NCBI GenBank assembly: GCA_937944035.1
Contig: CALDZQ010000153.1
Coordinates: 1-30,589, forward strand
DNA from: an uncultured Neomegalonema sp.
GTDB taxonomy: Bacteria > Pseudomonadota > Alphaproteobacteria > Rhodobacterales > Rhodobacteraceae
Reading direction: 5' to 3'
Length of the DNA stretch: 30,589 nt
Shown: piece after piece, positions 6,627 to 16,377 of the stretch
Layout of the letters: the number at the start of each line of letters is the position of its first letter
Position numbering within the stretch: position 1 is the first letter of the stretch
Position numbers and translations under genes: made by a program
Notes under the pieces: generated by a model
Databases searched by the model: none
What the model was told of the DNA's origin: nothing
The model's input: only the letters and a program-made list of their open reading frames with translations

Positions 6627-7994
6627 TTATGACGCCGCAGAGCCACCCCACCCCGACCACTCCGCCTCATCCACCCAAGGCGGTTTTTCCCCCGCTGCAC
6701 GGGCGGCTTTCCAGGTGTCGTAGGCGTTGCGCCGCTCACTCCAGCCATCCAACCGCTCAGGATGCCAATGCGCCGGACGGTGGAACCCCTCCGGCAACAC
6801 CGTCCCCGCGCAGCCGAAACAGGTTTTCACCGCCTCTTGCGATAAATCTTCCGCCGCTGTAAAATCAGCGAAGCTGGCCATGACGGAGTCAATGCGCACC
6901 ATGGCCAGCTTCGCTGATTTAAGCTGCGCCTGTATGAGGTCCGCCCCTTCCAAGTGCGCCTCTCTGAGGTCCGCCCCTTCCAAGTGCGCCCCTCTGAGGA
7001 CCGCCCCTTCCAAGTGCGCCTTATAGAGGTCCGCCCCTTCCAAGTGCGCCCCTCTGAGGTCCGCCCCTTCCAAGTGCGCCGTATAGAGGTTCGCCCCTTC
7101 CAAGTGCGCCCGTGTGAGGTCCGCCCCTTCCAAGTGCGCCTCTCTGAGGTTCGCCCCTTCCAAGTGCGCCTTATAGAGGTTCGCCCCTTCCAAGTGCGCC
7201 TCCGAAAGCAGGGCATTCCTGAAATTGCCCGCACGCATGTCCGCTTTGCGCAGGTTGGCCTTGCGCAGGTCCAGCACATAGCGTGACTTGTCAGGGCTTT
7301 CTTTGATTTCATACCGGACACGCGCTTTACTCCGCCGCCCTAACACTGTCAGCACGGCCTGCACATCGCTACGGACATCGGGGAAAGCCCTAACCCATTC
7401 TCTAATCTGATCATTCTTCACATCCGTAACCGGCAGCGCCTCACACCCCGCCCCCGGCGCATTCTCCCGCACATACGCGCACAGCGTCTCCATCACCGCG
7501 ATATGGTCACGCTCTGAGTCCTGAGAAATCCGCTCCAGCGCATAAATCGCCCCCAACCGCACCTCGATATTCGGTTTGTAGGTATAGATGTCGTTGCCTT
7601 CGTCATCCTTCGAGCGGATTTCCCGCGTCGTCCCCAACTGCTCCACAGCCTTCGTGAACAGGTCCGCATAATCCCGGTCCTGCTGCCGCTTCACCTGTGC
7701 TTCCGCCGCTGCCGTTGCCCGCCGCGCGATCTCGGCTCGCCAGACAGCAAAACCACCCGCAACAAGCGCGGCCAGCACCAGACCCACATTCCTCACCGCA
7801 GCTCTATCGTTCTGCCCGTCTTTGTTTAGGGGCGGATCAGCCAGCACGTCGAAGAAATCGACCAACACCCAACCCGTCAGAACGATTAGCAACGTCACAC
7901 CCGCTACGGCCAGCACTAGCGCGCCCCACGGCAGAATCCCACCTATCAGCCGCCCAAGCCGCGCGACGTGATCTGTTTTTTCACCTTCACTCAT
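6627..7994 (-). CDS. Membrane-anchored pentapeptide-repeat protein, ~455 aa, antisense cargo before g15
   Basis: Two N-terminal TM segments; DLFTKAVEQLG...EVRLGAIYALERISQDS..DH..VMETLCAYVRE; nine AHLEGAxLxx units. Start 7994 (MSEGEK) or 8012; the 635-aa track ORF runs through repeat DNA and g15. Confidence 0.85.
   Translation of the reverse strand: MSEGEKTDHVARLGRLIGGILPWGALVLAVAGVTLLIVLTGWVLVDFFDVLADPPLNKDGQNDRAAVRNVGLVLAALVAGGFAVWRAEIARRATAAAEAQVKRQQDRDYADLFTKAVEQLGTTREIRSKDDEGNDIYTYKPNIEVRLGAIYALERISQDSERDHIAVMETLCAYVRENAPGAGCEALPVTDVKNDQIREWVRAFPDVRSDVQAVLTVLGRRSKARVRYEIKESPDKSRYVLDLRKANLRKADMRAGNFRNALLSEAHLEGANLYKAHLEGANLREAHLEGADLTRAHLEGANLYTAHLEGADLRGAHLEGADLYKAHLEGAVLRGAHLEGADLREAHLEGADLIQAQLKSAKLAMVRIDSVMASFADFTAAEDLSQEAVKTCFGCAGTVLPEGFHRPAHWHPERLDGWSERRNAYDTWKAARAAGEKPPWVDEAEWSGWGGSAAS
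6931..7200 (-). repeat. Nine tandem 30-bp coding repeats (AHLEGA[DNV]L decapeptides)
   Basis: Core cgccccttccaagtgcgcc recurs with exact 30-nt period; in-frame in the pentapeptide gene. Confidence 0.95.
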
Positions 7995-8045
7995 CCCGCG
8001 ACTTTCCCCCATCCACCCCCCGTCGTAAAGCAAAACCCCGCCCCC

Positions 8046-8141
8046 TTTCACCGGGAGTGCGCAGCACGACCACGCGCTCGCCCGCCCCACGGGCGTGTGC
8101 GTCCCGCCAAAGGCGGTCCACCCCCTCCCCGGTCGACCGCT
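8046..8141 (+). repeat. Multi-hairpin repeat family 3, copy D (between pentapeptide gene start and g15 start)
   Basis: Matches copy B along its length and copy C at the 5' end. Confidence 0.85.
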
Positions 8142-8181
8142 TTTTTCTTCCCCCTCCCCCCAACACGGACTCCCCGCACCC

Positions 8182-11100
8182 ATGTCCACCCTCGTCCTCA
8201 CCGCTGCCGGAGCCGCCATCGGCGGCGCGGCCCTCCCCGCAGGCGTCGGCTTCCTCGGCGCGACCATCTCCGGCGCGGCCATCGGGTCGGGCATCGGCGG
8301 CGTGTTGGGCAGCGCCCTCGACCAGCGCCTCTTCGGCCCCGGCGCGCAAGTCCGCCAAGGTCCGCGCCTCACCAATCTCGACGTTGTCACCTCCACCGAG
8401 GGCGCGCCGGTCCCCCGCGTCTTCGGGCGTATGCGCCTCGCGGGACAAGTCATCTGGGCCACCCGCTTCAGGGAAACCGCCACTGACAGCAGCACGGGCG
8501 GCAAAGGGGGCGGCCCCGCCTCGCGCGATTTCACCTACTCCGTCAGCGTCGCCATCGCTCTGTGCGAAGGCCCGATCGCGGGCATCGGTCGCCTGTGGGC
8601 CGACGGCCAGCCGATGGACCTCAGCGGCGTCACCCGCCGCCTGCACCACGGCACAGAGAACCAGCCCCCCGACCCCCTCATCGCAGCGCTGACCCCCGAC
8701 ACCCCTTCCTACGCGGGCACAGCCTACATCGTCTTCGAGGACTTGCCGCTGACCCCCTACGGCAACCGCCTCCCCCAGATCACGGTCGAGGTCCGCCGCC
8801 AGCCCGTCCCCCCCGCCGGGCACGAGGACGGCCCCAACCTCCCCGCGCTGATCGAGGGCGTCGCCCTCTCCCCCGGCTCAGGTGAGTTCGCGCTCTCCAC
8901 CCAACCCGTCCGCCGCATCACGGGCGAGGGCATCTACGAGTCCGAGAACGAAAACAACACCGCCGGACAGCCCGACTTCCTCACCGCCATCGACCAGCTG
9001 GAGGCAACCGCCCCGAATTGCCGCTCGGCCCTGCTGATCGTCTCGTGGTTCGGCACAGACCTGCGCGCGGGCCACTGCCAACTCCACCCCGGCACCGACC
9101 GCGTCACCAAAGAGACCGATCCCCTCGCATGGCTCGTGTCGGGCGAAACCCGCAGCTCCGCCCACGCAATCAGCACAGACGACACCGCCAACGCCGTCTA
9201 CGGCGGCACACCGTCCGATGTCTCCGTCTTCCAAGCCATCCGCGAGCTGACCGCGCGGGGCATAGAAGTCACCTTCTACCCCTTCATCCTGATGGACATC
9301 CCCGCCAACAACCCGATGAGCCAACCCGCCTTCCCGTGGCGCGGACGCATCGAGGGGGCAGGGCAGGGCGACATCGACACCTTCTTCGGCACGGCCGCCC
9401 CGTCCGACTTCGCCCCCTGGACAGGCGCAACCATCCCCTACACCGGCCCGGATGAGCGCACCCTGCGCCGCATGATCCTCCACTACGCCCATCTCTGCGC
9501 CGCTGCCGGAGGGGTCGAGGCATTCTGCATCGGGTCAGAGCTTCGCGGCATCACCACCACCCGCGCGGGCAACACGTATCCTGCTGTCCCCGCCCTGCGC
9601 GCCCTCGCCGCCGATGTGCGCGCCATCCTGCCAAGCACCAAGATCAGCTACGCCGCCGACTGGTCCGAATACGCCAACCACCGCTTGTCAGACGGCACAC
9701 TGACCTTCCATCTCGACCCGCTGTGGGCCGACCCGAATATCAACTTCATCGGCATCGACAACTACCTGCCGCTGAGCGATTGGCGCACGGGCGGCGACCA
9801 TGCCGACGCGGCAAACGCCAACAGCGTCTACGACCTCGCCTACCTCACCGCCAACGTGGAGGGCGGCGAATACGCCGACTGGTTCTACGCCACGCCAGCC
9901 GACCGCGCCGCCCAAACCCGCACCCCGCTGACAGACACCGCCCACGGCGAGCATTGGGTCTTCGGCGTCAAGCGGCTGCGCGACTGGTGGTCCAACCCCC
10001 ACCACAACCGCCCCGCTGGCGTGCGCGAGGCGACCCCGACCGCATGGCAACCCCAATCCAAACCGATCCGCTTCACCGAAACCGGATGTCCCGCCGTCGA
10101 TCTGGGTGCGAACCAGCCCAACGTTTTCCACGACCCCAAATCGTCCGAATCCGCATTCCCCTACCACTCACGCGGCGTCAGGGATGACGCGATGCAGCGC
10201 CGCTATCTCCAAGCCATATTAGCCCATTGGCAAAACGATCCGATGGTCGAGCGCAGCTACGTCTGGACATGGGACACGCGCCCCTACCCGGATTACCCCC
10301 TGCGCAGCAGCGTCTGGAGCGACGGCCCCGCCTATGACAAAGGCCACTGGATCACGGGCCGCCTGGATGCCGCCCCCCTCGCCGAACTGGTCGCCGAGAT
10401 CTGCGCCAGCGCCGGAGAGACCCGCATCGATGTAAGTCGCCTGCACGACCTCGTCCACGGCTACACCATCGACCGCACCATGAGCGCCCGCGACGCCCTC
10501 GCCCCGCTGATGCTGGTCTACGGCTTCGACGCGGTGGAAAGCGACGGCGTCATCCGCTTCACCCCGCGCGGCGCGGCCCCCGTCGCCACGCTGGACGAGG
10601 CTGATCTCGTCGAGTCCGAAGACCCCTTCACCCTGACACGCGCGCAGGAAACCGATCTCCCCCGCGCCGTGCGTCTGGGCTACATCCGCGCCGATGCCGA
10701 ATACAGGCGCGGCACGGCGGAGGCGACGCTGGAGCCGACCGCCTCCAACCGCATCGACGCCAGCGACCACGCCATCGCGCTCCCCGGCGGCAAAGCCCAA
10801 GCCGCCGCCAACCGCTGGCTGTCCGAGGCCCATGTCGCCAAAGACAGCGCCGCCTTCGCGCTGCCCCCCTCCCGCCTCGCGCTGGAGCCGGGTGATACGA
10901 TCACGCTGGTGAATGACGGTAACAGCTACCCCCACCGCCTCGCCGCGATTTCAGAGGCCGACAGCCGCCAGATCGACGCCATCCGCGTCGCCCCCGATCT
11001 CTACATCCCGTCCGATGCGCCGGAATCCCAGCCCGAACCGCCCGCCCTGCCGTTGCAAACCCCCGTCATCGTCGAATTCCTCGACCTCCCGCTCCTCAAA

Positions 11101-11973
11101 GGCTCCGAAAGCCCCGCCCCCCACATCGCCGCTTTCGCAAGCCCGTGGCCCGGCGCGGTCGCCCTCTACAGCGCCCCGTCCGAGGCCGATTTCGCCCTGA
11201 CCCTCACCCTGGAACGCCCCGCCACACTGGGCCGCACCCTCACCGCGCTCACCCCAAGCGCCCCCTCCCGCTGGAGCCGAACAAGCGTCGACATCAAACT
11301 CTCCTCCGGCAGCCTGCGCAGCCGCGACCGCCTCAGCACCCTCGCCGGAGCCAACGCCGCCGCCCTGCGCACCCCGTCCGGCGCGTGGGAGGTGATCCAG
11401 TTCCGCGAGGCATCGCTGACGGCCCCGCAAACCTACCGCCTCACGGGCCTGCTGCGCGGTCAGGCCGGAACCGAACCGCTCATCACAGACCTGCCCGCCG
11501 GAACCCGCTTTATCCTCATCACCGACGCGCTCAAACAACTGCCCCTCACGGCTGAGGATACCGACCGCGAAGTCCACTACCGCTATGGCCCCGCAAACCT
11601 GCCCTTCGACGCCGAACCCTTCCGCGCCACCACCCACACCCCCTCCGGCGCAGCCCTGCGCCCCTACGCCCCCGCCCATCTGCGCACGACCACCACCGAC
11701 AACGGAGACCTCTCGATCACATGGACCCGCCGCAGCCGCGTCGGCGGCGACAGCCTGCAAACCGAACCGCCCATCGGTGAAGAATCCGAACGCTATCTGG
11801 TCGAATTCTCCACCCCCTCCGGCCCCCTGCGCAGTTTTGAGACAACCTCCCCCGCCACCACCTACACAGCCGCCCAACAATCCTCTGACGCCGCCACGCG
11901 GCCCCTAACCATCCGCATCGCCCAACTCTCCGCTGTGATCGGCCCCGGCTTTTTCGCTGAGATCGTGGTCTAA
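8182..11973 (+). CDS. GTA megatron / host-specificity baseplate protein (g15-like; GTA_TIM + phage-tail domains), 1263 aa
   Basis: ATG 8182 (MSTLVLTAAGAAIGG); EGAPVPRVFGRMRLAGQVIWATRF; SGEFAL; VSWFGTDLRAG; YRRMILHYAHL-like RRMILHYAHLCAAAGGVEAFCIGSELRG; ISYAADWSEY; SKPIRFTETGCPAVDLGANQPNVF; WTWDTRPYP; HWITGRL. Confidence 0.95.
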   Translation: MSTLVLTAAGAAIGGAALPAGVGFLGATISGAAIGSGIGGVLGSALDQRLFGPGAQVRQGPRLTNLDVVTSTEGAPVPRVFGRMRLAGQVIWATRFRETATDSSTGGKGGGPASRDFTYSVSVAIALCEGPIAGIGRLWADGQPMDLSGVTRRLHHGTENQPPDPLIAALTPDTPSYAGTAYIVFEDLPLTPYGNRLPQITVEVRRQPVPPAGHEDGPNLPALIEGVALSPGSGEFALSTQPVRRITGEGIYESENENNTAGQPDFLTAIDQLEATAPNCRSALLIVSWFGTDLRAGHCQLHPGTDRVTKETDPLAWLVSGETRSSAHAISTDDTANAVYGGTPSDVSVFQAIRELTARGIEVTFYPFILMDIPANNPMSQPAFPWRGRIEGAGQGDIDTFFGTAAPSDFAPWTGATIPYTGPDERTLRRMILHYAHLCAAAGGVEAFCIGSELRGITTTRAGNTYPAVPALRALAADVRAILPSTKISYAADWSEYANHRLSDGTLTFHLDPLWADPNINFIGIDNYLPLSDWRTGGDHADAANANSVYDLAYLTANVEGGEYADWFYATPADRAAQTRTPLTDTAHGEHWVFGVKRLRDWWSNPHHNRPAGVREATPTAWQPQSKPIRFTETGCPAVDLGANQPNVFHDPKSSESAFPYHSRGVRDDAMQRRYLQAILAHWQNDPMVERSYVWTWDTRPYPDYPLRSSVWSDGPAYDKGHWITGRLDAAPLAELVAEICASAGETRIDVSRLHDLVHGYTIDRTMSARDALAPLMLVYGFDAVESDGVIRFTPRGAAPVATLDEADLVESEDPFTLTRAQETDLPRAVRLGYIRADAEYRRGTAEATLEPTASNRIDASDHAIALPGGKAQAAANRWLSEAHVAKDSAAFALPPSRLALEPGDTITLVNDGNSYPHRLAAISEADSRQIDAIRVAPDLYIPSDAPESQPEPPALPLQTPVIVEFLDLPLLKGSESPAPHIAAFASPWPGAVALYSAPSEADFALTLTLERPATLGRTLTALTPSAPSRWSRTSVDIKLSSGSLRSRDRLSTLAGANAAALRTPSGAWEVIQFREASLTAPQTYRLTGLLRGQAGTEPLITDLPAGTRFILITDALKQLPLTAEDTDREVHYRYGPANLPFDAEPFRATTHTPSGAALRPYAPAHLRTTTTDNGDLSITWTRRSRVGGDSLQTEPPIGEESERYLVEFSTPSGPLRSFETTSPATTYTAAQQSSDAATRPLTIRIAQLSAVIGPGFFAEIVV

Positions 11974-12010: not shown

Positions 12011-12067
12011 TGTCTCAAAGCCTGTCCCTGCATCGAGATTGGCGAAAAATAGCATAAAAATAACACC

Positions 12068-12137
12068 GTCATACTCCGCGAAGGCGGGGTATCCAGCCTC
12101 GCGGCCTGAAAGACTGTCTCTCCATCAATCGGGTCGG
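12068..12137 (+). repeat. REP/MITE-like family 2 (GTCAT..CCGCGAAGGCGG..ATCCAG), copy 1, right end degenerate
   Basis: gtcatactccgcgaaggcggggtatccagcctcg..cctgaaaga..tctcc..caatcg aligns with 14292-14360. Confidence 0.75.
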
Positions 12138-12198
12138 TGTTCCCCGCCGAAATCACCGTCTGCCTCCCCCTTCTACCTCCCCCAACACGAAAGCCCTT

Positions 12199-13296
12199 AT
12201 GACCCCCAACCTCGCCCTGACCCTCCTCGCCGCATCCCAAGCGCAAAAGCATGTCACCATCAACGAAGCCCTCACCCGCATCGACGCCGCCGCGCAAACC
12301 GCCGTCCTCACCCGCACCCTCACCGCCCCGCCAACCACCCCCGCTGACGGCGACCGCTACCTGATCGACGGCCCCGCCACGGGCGATTGGCAAGGGCATG
12401 AGGACCAGATCGCCGCATGGGACGCCCCCGCCCAAGGCTGGCTCTTCCTCACCCCGCATCCGGGCTGGCGCGTCTGGATCATCGACGAGGACACACTCCT
12501 CGCCCGCACCGCCGCCAGCACATGGCAGCCTGTGGGCGGCGGCGGTCAGCTCAACCCCGTGGCGGGCGACCTGCTCGGCGTCAACACCAGCGCGGATGCC
12601 GCCAACCGCCTCGCCGTCGCCTCCCCCGGCGTGCTCCTCACCCACGAGGGCGCGGGCATCCGGACAAAGCTCAACAAAGCCGCCGCCTCTGATACCGCGT
12701 CGCTGCTGCTGCAAACCAACTACAGCACCCGCACCGAGTTCGGCCTTGTTGGCGATGATGACACCGTCCTCAAAACCTCCCCCGACGGCAGTGCCTTCAC
12801 CGAGGCAATGCGCATCCCCGCCGCCACCGCCCGCCCGGGTTTCCCCCAAGGCATCACCCTCGCCGGAGCCACCCCGCTCACCCGCTACGAGGAGGGCGAC
12901 TTTACGCTGACACTCGGTCCGGGCGCGACGTCGGGCCAGTGGGATGCGGCCACGGGCCTTGCCGTCGAGAGCGCCCGCTACACCCGCATCGGCAACCTCG
13001 TCCACCTGCGCGCCGCCTTCCGCTTCACCGGACTGCCGGACGCCCCGATAACCGCCGCCACCTCGCGCAGCCTCGACATGGCCCCCTTCACGCCGACCGA
13101 TGCGGCCCCGACCGACTCCTTCGACCACGCGGGCATGGCCACCATCGTCGGCCCCCTATCGAACGGAGGCAGCGCGTTTGCGTTTGCGTATCTGAACAAG
13201 ATCGGGCGGCTGTTCCTGTCCCTAGCACCCCCCGCCATCAACCCGCCGGAGACTTCGGCGCTGATCCTCCTGAACCTGACCTACGAGGCCGACTGA
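12199..13296 (+). CDS. DUF2793 tail fibre protein (rcc00171-like N-terminus) with a C-terminal tip domain
   Basis: TPNLAL.LLAASQAQKHVTINEAL..ID; GDRYLI...ATGDWQGHEDQIAAW; NRLAVAS.GVLLTH; LNKAAASDTASLL.Q; EFGLVGDDD; tip with RYEEGDFT...ARYTRIGNLVHL. Confidence 0.85.
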   Translation: MTPNLALTLLAASQAQKHVTINEALTRIDAAAQTAVLTRTLTAPPTTPADGDRYLIDGPATGDWQGHEDQIAAWDAPAQGWLFLTPHPGWRVWIIDEDTLLARTAASTWQPVGGGGQLNPVAGDLLGVNTSADAANRLAVASPGVLLTHEGAGIRTKLNKAAASDTASLLLQTNYSTRTEFGLVGDDDTVLKTSPDGSAFTEAMRIPAATARPGFPQGITLAGATPLTRYEEGDFTLTLGPGATSGQWDAATGLAVESARYTRIGNLVHLRAAFRFTGLPDAPITAATSRSLDMAPFTPTDAAPTDSFDHAGMATIVGPLSNGGSAFAFAYLNKIGRLFLSLAPPAINPPETSALILLNLTYEAD

Positions 13297-13299
13297 TCC

Positions 13300-14043
13300 A
13301 TGCCGACCCCGTCCATCGTCCGCGCCAACAACCCCTGCGCCCTGCGCCCCTTGTCACGGGGGCGCTGGAAAGGACAGACCGGAACCATACGCACCCCCGG
13401 CGGCGCGTATTGCGCGTTTTCAGACCCCGTCTGGGGCGTGCGTGCGGGCCTTCGCAATCTCGACACCTACCGCCGCCGCCACCGCCTCACCAGCGCGGCC
13501 CAGATCATCGCCCGCTGGGCACCCAAATCTGACAACAACCCCGAAAGCGCCTACGCCCGCTTCATCGCCCGCCGCCTCGGCCTCTCGGTCCTGCAACCGA
13601 TCCCGTTCGACTACGACCACACCAGCCGCCTTGTCGCCTCCATCATCCGGTTCGAGACGGGAACCAACGCCGTCGGCCCCGACACCATCGCCCAAGCAAT
13701 GGCCCTAATGGCCGCCGAGGAAGAAACCGCAGGCCGCGACCCGGCCCCCTATCTGGTCGAGAGCGCCCCGCTCAAACCGCTCACCCGTTCCAAAGAAATC
13801 GCGCTGGGCGGGGGCGCGGCCACCATCGGCGCGGGCGGCGCACTCGCCTACGCCCCCGAAGCCATAGACGCCGCCCGCTCCGCCATCGACACAGGCCGCG
13901 ACGCGGCACAGTCCATCGGCATCTCCAAACCCGCCGCCAGCCTGGGCGAGTTCGCCTGTATCGGCAGCTTTCTGATCCTGCTGCTGTTCGGCCTCGCCAT
14001 CCTCGCCAACCGCCTCCTCGCCCGCTACCGCGCCGAAAGATGA
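13300..14043 (+). CDS. Putative endolysin (phage 'virion protein/P5-like' lysozyme-type family) with C-terminal hydrophobic helices
   Basis: RANNPCALR..W.GQTG..Y..FSDP.WGVRA...L..Y...L....IIARWAP..DNN..AY...IA...G...LVASIIRFETG motif string; tail SKEIALGGGAATIGAGG and FLILLLFGLAILANR. Starts 3 nt after the fibre stop. Confidence 0.65.
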   Translation: MPTPSIVRANNPCALRPLSRGRWKGQTGTIRTPGGAYCAFSDPVWGVRAGLRNLDTYRRRHRLTSAAQIIARWAPKSDNNPESAYARFIARRLGLSVLQPIPFDYDHTSRLVASIIRFETGTNAVGPDTIAQAMALMAAEEETAGRDPAPYLVESAPLKPLTRSKEIALGGGAATIGAGGALAYAPEAIDAARSAIDTGRDAAQSIGISKPAASLGEFACIGSFLILLLFGLAILANRLLARYRAER

Positions 14044-14046
14044 CCC

Positions 14047-14214
14047 ATGACCTCGACCCTGACGATCCCCTTGCCCAACACCCTCACCCTGACCCGCACC
14101 ATCAGTCCGAGCGGCGACCTGTCCCTGCACATCACCGACCCCTCCGGCACGATCCACTACAGCGAAGACATCACCGCCCCGCAGACCGTCGACACACCGG
14201 AGCAAATCCTCTGA
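14047..14214 (+). CDS. Small 55-aa Thr-rich protein MTSTLTIPLPNTLTLTRTISPSGDLSLHITDPSGTIHYSEDITAPQTVDTPEQIL (not in ORF track)
   Basis: ATG 3 nt after the endolysin stop (TGA-ccc-ATG, same spacing as fibre-endolysin TGA-tcc-ATG); C-ending codons as in neighbouring GTA genes. Confidence 0.6.
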   Translation: MTSTLTIPLPNTLTLTRTISPSGDLSLHITDPSGTIHYSEDITAPQTVDTPEQIL

Positions 14215-14291
14215 TTGCGTCACTTCTGCGCGGCCCTCGCTACGGCTTGGCTCTGATTATCGCAGTAAAGCGCTTACATCAGCAAAGCAGA

Positions 14292-14409
14292 GTCATCATC
14301 CGCGAAGGCGGATGATCCAGTCTCGTTTCCTGAAAGATATTTCTCCGGCAATCGAGTCTGGATTCTTTGCTGGAGCCTGTCCTCCGCGAAGGCGGGGGCA
14401 GAGAATGAC
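14292..14409 (+). repeat. REP/MITE-like family 2, copy 2, with nested hairpin insertion
   Basis: Reverse complement of 15604-15699 except that the second loop carries tggagcctgtcctccgcgaaggcggggg. Confidence 0.85.
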
Positions 14410-14422
14410 GGAAGATTTCTGA

Positions 14423-14719
14423 ATGACCCTCCTCGCCCGCCTCCTCACACTCCCCCGCTGGCTCCTCCTCGCCACCGCAGCAACAACCGCCATCACCACC
14501 CACACCGCCGCCTACCACCTCGGCGCAGCCTTCGCCTTCCGCGCAGGCTTCGACAACGGCGCAGCCACCACGCTCAACCGCCTCGCCGCCCAAGCCGCCC
14601 GCCGCACCGCCAACCAGATCGAAGACCGCCTCAATGCCGAAACCGCTTCTCATCCTCACAATGGCGAGCGCCCTGACGGCCTGCGCTGCGGTCCCTCCGC
14701 CCGTGACTGCCCCGAATAA
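14423..14719 (+). CDS. Putative inner-membrane spanin (Rz-like), 98 aa
   Basis: N-terminal hydrophobic segment, Ala-rich helix LNRLAAQAARRTANQIEDRLNAE, C-terminal RCGPSARDCPE; its 3' end overlaps a lipoprotein gene. Confidence 0.6.
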   Translation: MTLLARLLTLPRWLLLATAATTAITTHTAAYHLGAAFAFRAGFDNGAATTLNRLAAQAARRTANQIEDRLNAETASHPHNGERPDGLRCGPSARDCPE

Positions 14720-14873
14720 CTGCCTCAGCTGCCGCGCCCTCCCGCCGCCGAGTTCCAGCATCACCGACACCCCTAAAACCCGCGCGCTGACGGACGTGAT
14801 CTTCACCGTATGGGCCTGCACCTGCGCCCCCGACCTCGCCGCCGCCAAAGGACTGAAATGCTCCCCCGCCTGA
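14634..14873 (+). CDS. Putative outer-membrane lipoprotein spanin (Rz1-like), 79 aa
   Basis: Lipobox ALTA-C17, Pro-rich mature part (VPPPVTAP, LPPPSS), several Cys; starts 86 nt inside the upstream gene in another frame, GAAGA RBS. Confidence 0.65.
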   Translation: MPKPLLILTMASALTACAAVPPPVTAPNNCLSCRALPPPSSSITDTPKTRALTDVIFTVWACTCAPDLAAAKGLKCSPA

Positions 14874-15538
14874 CCGACAGAGCCGCCCTTACCCTGATGG
14901 GCGCAACCCTCGCCATCGCCTTCACCGCCGCGCTGACCTTCACCCGTGACAGCACCCGCCCCTGCACCGAGCGCGTGTTTCTCAGCGATAACGACTCCTA
15001 TTCATGGGGCACAATCACCCGCTGGGGCAGCGGCTATCTCACCGCTTTCCACGTCATCGACAGCGGCCAGATCGTCGACGGCCCCGCCGTATCAAGCATC
15101 GGCGACCTGCCCGCCACCGATTTCAGCTTTCTGACGGGCGCAGCCATCAAATCCGACCCCGCCAGCATCCCTGCCCCCCAAGGCGCGGTGACGCTGGAGG
15201 GTTTTCCCGCCCGCGCGACCATGCGAGAGCGGCTGAACGGCACAGTCTACGCACCGGACACTGTCCCGCCCGGCATATGGGTCATGCTCGACCACCCCGA
15301 ACCGCTGGTGGGTGGCTTCTCCGGTGGCTGTGTGCGCGATGCTGATAACGAGGTCGTCGCCGTCATCATGGGCGCATCCTCAATGAAGCTCGACGGCCAA
15401 ACCCGCCACTTCGCCCGCGTCATCCCAATCCGCGACGCCCTGCACGAGATCCAGGGCGCACCGCCCCCAAACACCCGCCCCCTGACCCTGCTCCCCCGCC
15501 TGATCCCGGCGTTACAGCAATGGCCCGAACGCGGATGA
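14858..15538 (+). CDS. Membrane-anchored trypsin-like (S1) serine protease, 226 aa
   Basis: ATG 14858 after AAAGGA, overlapping the lipoprotein gene end; TM ALTLMGATLAIAFTAALTF; triad motifs YLTAFHV (His), TDFSFL (Asp), GFSGGCV (Ser). Confidence 0.75.
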   Translation: MLPRLTDRAALTLMGATLAIAFTAALTFTRDSTRPCTERVFLSDNDSYSWGTITRWGSGYLTAFHVIDSGQIVDGPAVSSIGDLPATDFSFLTGAAIKSDPASIPAPQGAVTLEGFPARATMRERLNGTVYAPDTVPPGIWVMLDHPEPLVGGFSGGCVRDADNEVVAVIMGASSMKLDGQTRHFARVIPIRDALHEIQGAPPPNTRPLTLLPRLIPALQQWPERG

Positions 15539-15603
15539 TTTCCTCTGTCCCGGATTTGATGCTACCGCATTCACATCTTTTCGTGTTCGACGAACAAGGC
15601 ACA

Positions 15604-15699
15604 GTCATTCTCTGCGAAGGCAGAGAATCCAGACTCGATTGACTGAGAAATAATCTTTCAAGACACGAGGCTGGATCATCTGCCTTCGCAGATGATGAC
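15604..15699 (-). repeat. REP/MITE-like family 2, copy 3 (complete, two terminal hairpins)
   Basis: gtcattctctgcgaaggcagagaatccag ... ctggatcatctgccttcgcagatgatgac; inverted relative to copies 1 and 2. Confidence 0.85.
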
Positions 15700-15816
15700 A
15701 GTGTTTCTTTTTGAGGAGCTACCGAAATCCTCACTCAAGAGACTTTCTTACATAGATAGTGAATCGCAAATGCTCTGACCGGGGCCTCCCAACGGCGATA
15801 CAATCGAAAGCCCTGA

Positions 15817-16377
15817 ATGCCCACGCCGAGCCTACGCCTGAACCGCGCCGCCGAATACGCGGATAAATTCCTGAAAATCACCGCCGCCACCGCCCTTCTC
15901 GGCGGGGCCGGAGCCTTCACCTTTCTGAGCGATGCCCTGCGCGACAGCATCCAAGACTATTTCGGCATCAACGCCATCGTCGCCCGGATTGAGAGCATCG
16001 AGGCCCGCCTGCCCGGCCAGAAAGTCGCGATCTACGACGCGTCGTTCTCTTATATCGAAGGCCCGTGCGTGATCGGCGACGTATGCATCGCCCGCTTCAA
16101 AATCCGCCGCACCCCTTACGGCGCAGACTGCTCACAGCCCCGTGTGACGCCCTATGTCGATAATCACGGCGGCGTCAAACACCCTGCCGAATACATCGGC
16201 GGCAGCTTACGCGCGGGCGCGGATGTCTGGTCCCAAATCGAAATCCGCTTCCGCGTCCCCGCCAACGCACAGGCCGGCCGCGCCGCCTATGCCTCGCTGC
16301 AAGAATACCACTGCCCCAACGGCACGGTATCGGAGGAGTCGATCTCGTTGAGTTTTATCCTCAAAGCGGGCGCTTGA
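15817..16377 (+). CDS. Single-TM protein with 4-Cys periplasmic beta domain, 186 aa, unknown function
   Basis: Hydrophobic ITAATALLGGAGAFTFL, short coiled segment, Cys in GPC, DVC, ADC, YHC; GAAAG RBS. Confidence 0.7.
   Translation: MPTPSLRLNRAAEYADKFLKITAATALLGGAGAFTFLSDALRDSIQDYFGINAIVARIESIEARLPGQKVAIYDASFSYIEGPCVIGDVCIARFKIRRTPYGADCSQPRVTPYVDNHGGVKHPAEYIGGSLRAGADVWSQIEIRFRVPANAQAGRAAYASLQEYHCPNGTVSEESISLSFILKAGA

Follow-up and report, generated by a model that had tools for sequence, protein, structure and literature searches.

The 30,589-nucleotide (nt) stretch of DNA analysed here, which we call the window, comes from an uncultured Neomegalonema sp. (contig CALDZQ010000153.1 of assembly GCA_937944035.1) and contains the tail end of a gene transfer agent (GTA) cluster of the RcGTA type, interleaved with unrelated genes. 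Downstream of the GTA megatron gene and a DUF2793 fibre-like gene, an open reading frame (ORF) of 247 amino acids (aa), which we call the lysin, starts only 3 nt after the DUF2793 stop codon with no terminator-like site in between, and it is followed in order by a 55-aa ORF, a 98-aa transmembrane protein, a 79-aa lipoprotein and a trypsin-like protein (Table 1). We consider it likely that the lysin is an endolysin of the Enc34/M4Lys type heading a phage-derived lysis cassette, and that its main job is to open the wall of the producer cell for GTA release.

The lysin ORF is a real gene under purifying selection. It starts with ATG and ends with a stop codon at 14041-14043, its GC content at third codon positions (0.84) is similar to that of the neighbouring genes, and one copy is present in its own genome. 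The gene has been retained by purifying selection in six or more species, the within-genus ratios of nonsynonymous to synonymous substitution rates (dN/dS) lying between 0.07 and 0.27 in the catalytic domain and between 0.10 and 0.58 in the linker and tail. Its translation contains NNPCALR (residues 10-16), WKGQ (23-26), FSDPVWGVRA (40-49), IIARWAPKSDNN (69-80), IIRFETG (115-121) and a C-terminal NRLLARYRAER, and thus every motif listed in a previous interpretation of this DNA by a model that saw only the letters and their translations (the sequence-only reading). Among 75 homologues with 25-74% identity, there is no variation at N11, F40, A74, P75, N80 and Y85, and conservation reaches at least 90% at P12, W23, G25, G46, R48, A49, L54, Y57, R72, W73, E119 and G121; these motifs are therefore conserved positions of a large family and not chance patterns. 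In an exhaustive HMMER scan with the lysin, 4573 cluster representatives passed E<=1e-3 and 430 of them also E<=1e-10, and many of the matches are longer proteins in which the lysin domain is internal.

Pfam gave no match for the lysin at E<=1 and NCBIfam was also silent, because the family is missing from those libraries, whereas PHROGs and a sequence search of PDB do find it. PHROG 873, annotated as endolysin, covers residues 7-139 (E 1.4e-30), and a phmmer search of PDB sequences found 7Q47, which is the Hafnia phage Enc34 endolysin's catalytic domain (E 7.5e-7), as well as the N-terminus of the 1295-aa protein Gp29 (9VVP; E 2.8e-11). BLASTP against the full-length Enc34 endolysin, ORF39, aligned 134 aa with 32% identity (E 1e-12). 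The lysin was modelled by AlphaFold2 from the 75 homologues with a mean confidence (pLDDT) of 87.7, and of 93-99 over residues 1-150. When this model was searched against PDB by Foldseek, 7Q47_B and 7Q47_A were the only significant matches (E 1e-7 and 3e-7; target TM-score 0.71 and 0.68), and VIA-align against representatives gave 7Q47_B a Z of 18.3 with a root-mean-square deviation of 1.7 Å over 134 residues, the next best Z being 6.5 and that of a GH73 glucosaminidase domain 5.3.

The catalytic domain of Enc34 ORF39 lyses permeabilised Gram-negative cells; its all-helical fold has a distant relationship to the lysozyme alpha-lobe (GH73/GH23), and its catalytic residue is Glu131, accompanied by the conserved residues Trp79 and Tyr95 (Cernooka et al., 2022; PMC8943055). 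The numbering of the Enc34 ORF is that of the paper plus 1, and the ORF residues E132, W80 and Y96 align with E119, W73 and Y85 of the lysin, all of which are invariant in alignment A1. Judged from this alignment and by analogy with Enc34, the lysin is probably a beta-N-acetylglucosaminidase that uses Glu119 and holds the sugar chain in position through Trp73 and Tyr85. Because sequence, predicted fold, catalytic signature and architecture all agree, it clearly belongs to the Enc34/M4Lys (PHA02564) class of endolysins. Two other classes were rejected: PF05838 does not match the lysin, which excludes the GH108 (rcc00555) type, and no hydrophobic window is present at its N-terminus, its hydrophobic segments being C-terminal only, which excludes the signal-anchor-release (SAR) endolysins.

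The sequence-only reading had proposed a lysozyme-like enzyme, possibly with the Glu of FETG as the catalytic residue, and had distinguished it from rcc00555, which we take to be a GH108-type endolysin with a separate holin. The proposal holds at the level of sequence and modelled fold, including the structural comparison that it had suggested, and the alignment favours the same Glu; the window's own genome, which is 91% complete, gave no GH108 match. Of the two hydrophobic segments that it had described in the membrane tail, the distal one stands as a strong transmembrane helix, and the basic C-terminus is as described; the proximal one does not stand as a helix of this kind, being a marginal, weakly hydrophobic Gly/Ala segment with pLDDT below 50. 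A C-terminal membrane domain of the Enc34/M4Lys type is accordingly present as a distal helix with an Arg-rich end and a weak proximal segment; that of Enc34 has two predicted helices and that of M4Lys a single firm helix with a charged end. The sequence-only reading had further suggested that the tail may anchor or self-export the enzyme, which would account for the lack of a classical holin; such behaviour has been demonstrated experimentally for the homologue M4Lys (PMC7143992) and would carry over to the lysin by homology. The linker motif GRDPAPY (residues 145-151; 13732-13752) is kept across the genus together with E140 and P160; the motif is conserved in the close, alphaproteobacterial-type relatives, and all three features are also found in the distant relatives with a transmembrane domain (TMD) P0028 and P0032-P0036; the motif is absent from Enc34.

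The two spanin-like genes lie 380 nt 3' of the lysin, and both of their overlapped frames are conserved at the protein level in seven loci, where the lipobox of the o-spanin-like protein ends in TAC (LTAC in six and MTAC in one). By this architecture the lysin stands in a lysis-cassette position. We also looked for a holin in the cassette of the window, and none was evident: the 55-aa ORF was rejected for having no hydrophobic segment, and a 186-aa protein (p186, 15817-16377) has one transmembrane segment but a large periplasmic part. In most cassettes of the Enc34 type, a 63-aa protein with a C-terminal transmembrane helix follows the protease; this XhlA-like protein had no tblastn match in the window or in locus L001, where the 186-aa protein is found instead. 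Repeats resembling repetitive extragenic palindromes (REP) or miniature inverted-repeat transposable elements, with nested hairpins, occur at 12053-12148, 14277-14370 and 15589-15711, i.e. before the fibre gene, between orf55 and the spanin-like genes, and after the protease gene; they are 61-93 nt long, 61-91% alike and in both direct and inverted orientation.

Table 1. Positions of the lysin, its parts, the neighbouring genes and the related loci used for comparison (window coordinates unless a locus is named; KD, Kyte-Doolittle hydropathy; dG, insertion free energy summed on a Hessa-type scale)
Feature	Position	Strand	Description and basis
Lysin, complete coding sequence	13300-14043	+	Enc34-type endolysin, 247 aa plus stop; single copy, purifying selection
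Catalytic domain, residues 1-143	13300-13728	+	PHA02564/Enc34 fold, predicted all-helical core with short hairpin; sequence and AlphaFold2 model
W73 (RWAP)	13516-13518	+	Corresponds to Enc34 Trp79; alignment, PMC8943055
Y85 (SAYA)	13552-13554	+	Corresponds to Enc34 Tyr95; alignment; invariant in 75 sequences
E119 (FETG)	13654-13656	+	Corresponds to catalytic Glu131 of Enc34; alignment; at least 90% conserved in 75 sequences
Linker, residues 144-166	13729-13797	+	Motif GRDPAPY; alignments
Proximal segment, residues 167-185	13798-13854	+	Gly/Ala-rich, glycine-zipper-like; KD 1.31, dG +4.1; genus-conserved
Distal transmembrane helix, residues 218-236	13951-14007	+	KD 2.68, dG -3.5; within modelled helix 215-246
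Arg-rich C-terminal end	14008-14040	+	4 Arg in last 12 residues; expected to be cytoplasmic; same feature in M4Lys (PMC7143992)
orf55	14047-14214		Follows lysin; no hydrophobic segment
i-spanin-like gene	14423-14719	+	98 aa; N-terminal transmembrane segment, helical periplasmic part, C-terminal Cys pair; architecture
o-spanin-like gene	14634-14873	+	79 aa; Pro/Cys-rich lipoprotein in another frame, overlapping the 3' end of the i-spanin-like gene; architecture
Trypsin-like protein	14810-15538		N-terminal transmembrane segment; downstream of lysin
DUF2793 fibre-like gene	12199-13296	+	Follows megatron
GTA megatron (g15)	8182-11973	+	NF048004, 1579 bits against a cut-off of 800
g14	5120-5701		NlpC/P60 entry peptidase; minor tail protein matches
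g13	2769-3620		g13 domains present
g12 (DUF2460)	743-1366		
63-aa transmembrane protein	L002:5241-5435		Equivalents in L003, L019, L020 and L021; weak XhlA-like match to phrog_1193 'hemolysin', E 7e-4
Megatron remnant	G312:C45:484-768 (L002)		Upstream of lysin cassette; no other megatron match in this 98%-complete genome
GH108 cassette	L015:1784-4072, L016:1609-3931, L017:1602-3854		Species G306, G308 and G314

An important clue to the function was the comparison within the genus, whose genomes are fragmented metagenome-assembled genomes (MAGs). The lysin was found in 8 of the 15 other species with 71-96% identity, and thus in nine genomes including its own; the closest genomic records are Neomegalonema MAGs and one Rhodobacteraceae MAG. 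Outside the genus, a sample of 300 genomes that covered 113 genera of the order contained no Enc34-type homologue at E<=1e-5. When the lysin and the megatron were on one contig (seven genomes), the lysin was invariably downstream, by 92-2936 nt, and on the same strand. Four species with a megatron and without the Enc34-type lysin (G306, G308, G314 and G315) carry at the same place a lysin with GH108 and PG_binding_3 domains, which is 166-180 aa long and matches PF05838 (E 1e-24 to 1e-26) and PF09374. The order of this sister cassette is DUF2793, the GH108 lysin (which overlaps the stop of DUF2793), a lipoprotein of 125 aa, a trypsin-like protein of 230 aa, a membrane protein with DUF6107 that is a possible holin partner, a further transmembrane protein and cysE. 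The DUF2793 proteins of the two clades (that of the window and L015:462-1796) are alike in only the first ~215 residues, with 54% identity, and their C-terminal parts are wholly different, so that the swapped block seems to begin inside the fibre gene. No genome of the genus has both lysin types, and the three genomes with neither type, which are 68-87% complete, also lack a megatron match. DUF6107 was not found in the window's own genome, which is a weak negative because the search control also gave no match.

In a maximum-likelihood tree of the megatron, which comprised six Enc34-type and four GH108-type species with three outgroup genera and omitted G309, which lacks a megatron, and G305 and G312, whose megatron is partial, the two types formed two fully supported sister clades, and one change therefore explains the distribution. 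In a family-wide comparison, GH108 was found in 103 of 121 genomes and the megatron in 111 of 121. In other genera, GH108 and the megatron were 20 kb-1.6 Mb apart when present on one contig (about 25 genomes, read by eye), and it is only in this genus that GH108 adjoins the megatron. Since GH108 is the norm of the family, the simplest view is that the Enc34-type cassette is derived, although the direction of the swap cannot be polarised by the megatron tree alone. The finding of the two lysin types at the same locus in sister species, never together, supports the non-orthologous replacement that had been suggested from the sequence. Because the alternative occupant of this slot is a cassette of the GH108 (rcc00555) type, GTA release is the most likely job of the lysin.

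The nearest viral relative of the lysin belongs to IMG/VR record 3300002057_000010 (L023), with 51% identity over residues 3-166, and has a transmembrane helix and a longer C-terminal extension. The genes of L023 are arranged as a Mor-like late activator, the lysin, an Rz-like protein, an overlapping lipoprotein-like gene, a small transmembrane protein, a classical trypsin-like protease, and the small and large terminases; the matches to Rz-like spanins are weak. Judged from this gene order, the L023 lysin occupies the lysis slot of a Mu-like phage. A trypsin-like protein is common to the cassette of the window, to L023 (7628-8404) and to the GH108 cassette (L015:2690-3382). The proteins of the window and the GH108 cassette share a weak local match at a GG(F/M)SGG motif (pairwise E 0.003), and no similarity was found between the proteases of the window and L023.

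Concerning the cluster itself, its assignment to the RcGTA type is based on the megatron equivalog, on g12, g13 and g14 upstream, and on the flanking gene cysE, which follows the cassette in sister species and is not adjacent to it in this window. The cassette closes the GTA structural cluster on its 3' side, after megatron and DUF2793 and before cysE as the usual flanking gene. Unrelated genes are inserted among g12-g15: an RTX repeat protein (1443-2753), a 477-aa protein (3617-5050, minus strand), a histidine-phosphatase-like protein (5280-6284) and a pentapeptide-repeat protein (6627-8534, minus strand). The genome of the window also carries two HK97-type capsid genes; the one at G000:C220:2855-3712 (E 1e-90) is probably the GTA g5, and the weaker one at G000:C137:19108-19815 may come from a prophage.

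We can picture the release of GTA particles in the following steps, the lysin being the first gene of a cassette with the small ORF, the overlapped spanin-like pair and the trypsin-like protein. Transcription of the lysin would accompany or immediately follow that of the distal GTA tail genes. Its Arg-rich end would stay in the cytoplasm while the distal helix spans the inner membrane, as suggested by the charge distribution and by M4Lys, and the Gly/Ala segment may pack against this helix or may behave as a marginal, releasable segment. The catalytic domain would then reach the peptidoglycan and cut the glycan strand with Glu119, in line with the conserved residues and with Enc34 and M4Lys, and the spanin-like pair, judging from its architecture, would break the outer membrane and let the particles escape. 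By analogy, the membrane tail may bring the lysin to the peptidoglycan without a separate holin. It is in this sense that we infer the enzymatic activity, bond specificity, co-transcription with the GTA genes and GTA-release role of the lysin.

Several points weigh against this reading. A self-sufficient lysin coupled directly to structural genes raises a problem of timing, and the reading requires an N-terminal domain of 215 residues to cross the membrane, a step left unexplained in Enc34 and M4Lys as well. The proximal segment is a marginal helix at best, with low model confidence; the spanin-like pair has no Pfam or PHROG match and is therefore assigned by architecture alone; and the REP-like repeats part the lysin and orf55 from the spanin-like genes. 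As the genomes are fragmented MAGs, a GH108 gene or a holin may have escaped assembly, and because the swap is a single evolutionary event, the complementary distribution counts as one observation, not nine. Two unrelated genes lie between the megatron and the lysin in G311 and G312, and in G312 only the last ~100 residues of the megatron are found beside the lysin, which reflects either decay of the GTA with retention of the lysis cassette or an assembly artefact.

The observations on G311 and G312 also suit the strongest of the alternatives, in which the genes are the remains of a prophage lysis cassette in an insertion-tolerant gap before cysE, either idle or serving vesicle formation or altruistic lysis instead of GTA release. 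The cluster in this window tolerates many unrelated insertions, extra ORFs between the cluster and cysE are found in several genomes (Hynes et al., 2016; PMC5026251), REP-like repeats flank parts of the cassette, and the closest relative of the lysin is a true phage gene. We nevertheless regard this explanation as rather unlikely, because no integrase or other phage gene accompanies the lysin, because purifying selection has kept the lysin across at least six species, and because it is on the same strand as the fibre gene and tightly coupled to it. Moreover, the other occupant of the slot is the type of enzyme that RcGTA uses for release, and no other endolysin of that GH108 type was found in the genome.

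A second alternative is that the lysin is a virion-associated entry hydrolase, delivered by the tail of the GTA particle to pierce the wall of the recipient. The domain has such a role in podophages, as part of large ejection proteins, and in the structural membrane protein P5 of PM2, and it is found inside the large virion proteins epsilon15 gp15 (842 aa) and Gp29 of 9VVP; the PHROG 873 profile has 1277 positions, tape-measure and injection-protein PHROGs also match, and the lysin gene follows tail and fibre genes. The domain alone therefore cannot separate an exit function from an entry function. Fogg et al. reportedly link VSH-1 to the epsilon15 endolysin; we rejected the epsilon15 match of the lysin as a clue to VSH-1, since the match is to gp15, the virion protein, and not to that endolysin. 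What decides for exit is the stand-alone size, the predicted C-terminal TMD and the spanin-like neighbours: the lysin is a stand-alone protein of 247 aa and not a domain inside a protein of more than 800 aa, and it is for the stand-alone form, a protein of ~240 aa carrying a C-terminal TMD, that endolysin function has been demonstrated (PMC8943055, PMC7143992). In addition, the GTA already has an entry peptidase, g14 (PMC3423380), sister species have a classical GH108 endolysin in the same slot, and the nearest phage relative is in a lysis slot and not among tail genes, so that we judge a role in entry to be improbable. An antibacterial effector or a housekeeping enzyme for wall remodelling is hardly credible, even though 7Q47 is listed in the context of type VI secretion effectors in one paper (PMC13340143) and the glycoside-hydrolase effector 4kt3 of that system is a weak structural match (Z 4.8), because no secretion-system or immunity genes are nearby, the lysin has no N-terminal export signal, and its tail architecture and neighbours are of the lysis-cassette type.

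Returning to the reading of a GTA-release endolysin, we note that the enzyme class, its fold and the membrane tail have already been published, and the lysin is therefore not a new enzyme type; what is new is its position attached to a GTA and the replacement of the GH108 cassette within a genus. Our literature search found no paper linking PHA02564 or spanins to a GTA. The class has been described as confined to chi-like phages of enterobacteria and a few relatives, and here it occurs in an alphaproteobacterium and in a Mu-like phage as one and the same type, in which the linker motif is conserved and the anchor considerably more hydrophobic. A bolder scenario, which we offer tentatively and consider doubtful at present, is that one clade exchanged the ancestral GTA endolysin and holin for a tail-anchored glucosaminidase that inserts itself, needs no holin and brings its own spanins, with the new system wired directly onto the end of the structural operon. 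If true, GTAs would have yet another independent means of release, the third alongside rcc00555/556 and LypABC, and the timing of lysis might then depend on the position in the operon or on the trypsin-like protein acting on the conserved GRDPAPY linker. Because the slot after the tail genes holds either a GH108 cassette or a holin-less one within a single genus, it provides a natural experiment on GTA release, in which the need for a holin in a domesticated GTA and the timing of lysis become testable questions in closely related strains.

Among known systems, Enc34 ORF39 resembles the lysin in its catalytic fold, its Glu/Trp/Tyr signature and its near-equal length (247 vs 242 aa), and the same computation gave it a weak proximal segment and a stronger distal helix; a small overlapped pair of the Rz/Rz1 type (84 and 68 aa) follows in the same order. 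The two differ in that their identity is 26-32%, Enc34 has an upstream holin, ORF38, whereas the window lysin has no holin gene upstream, and the distal helix of the window lysin has a far higher hydrophobicity and four Arg at its end, with GRDPAPY present only in the window lysin. Their settings are also different, a chi-like siphophage and a GTA cluster of an alphaproteobacterium. M4Lys, from Salmonella phage BSPM4, is sufficient to lyse E. coli and requires neither Sec nor a holin, and azide does not block this lysis; deletion of its TMD abolishes lysis, the TMD alone is only bacteriostatic, and the catalytic part removes N-acetylglucosamine from muropeptides (Bai et al., 2020; PMC7143992). 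The lysin shares with M4Lys the class, the TMD and the charged C-terminal end, and the functional properties would carry over by homology only. The SAR endolysins (P1 Lyz and R of phage 21) are likewise membrane-tethered muralytic enzymes with a weak Gly/Ala-rich segment and can act without a large-hole holin, but their membrane domain is N-terminal and Sec-dependent, whereas that of the lysin is a C-terminal module and its N-terminus is hydrophilic.

Among GTA systems, Caulobacter crescentus uses LypABC, a CARD-NLR-like hub for GTA lysis (PMC13236601); it is also found in a GTA lineage that does not use rcc00555/556 for release, but it consists of protease/NLR-like proteins, leads to lysis with ghost cells and has no homology to the lysin. 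The RcGTA endolysin and holin of Rhodobacter capsulatus, rcc00555/rcc00556, have the same presumed role as the lysin, namely GTA release by lysis of the producer, and the enzyme belongs to an unrelated family, the lysin having neither the GH108 nor the PG_binding_3 domain. They are at a conserved distant site, the cycJ/heme-lyase locus, while pabC and cysE border the structural cluster, now and then with additional ORFs (Hynes et al., 2016; PMC5026251), and the family-wide separation of GH108 and megatron fits this picture. The lysin, in contrast, adjoins the structural cluster on its 3' side. In place of the separate holin of RcGTA, the lysin has a built-in membrane tail and is accompanied by spanin-like genes.

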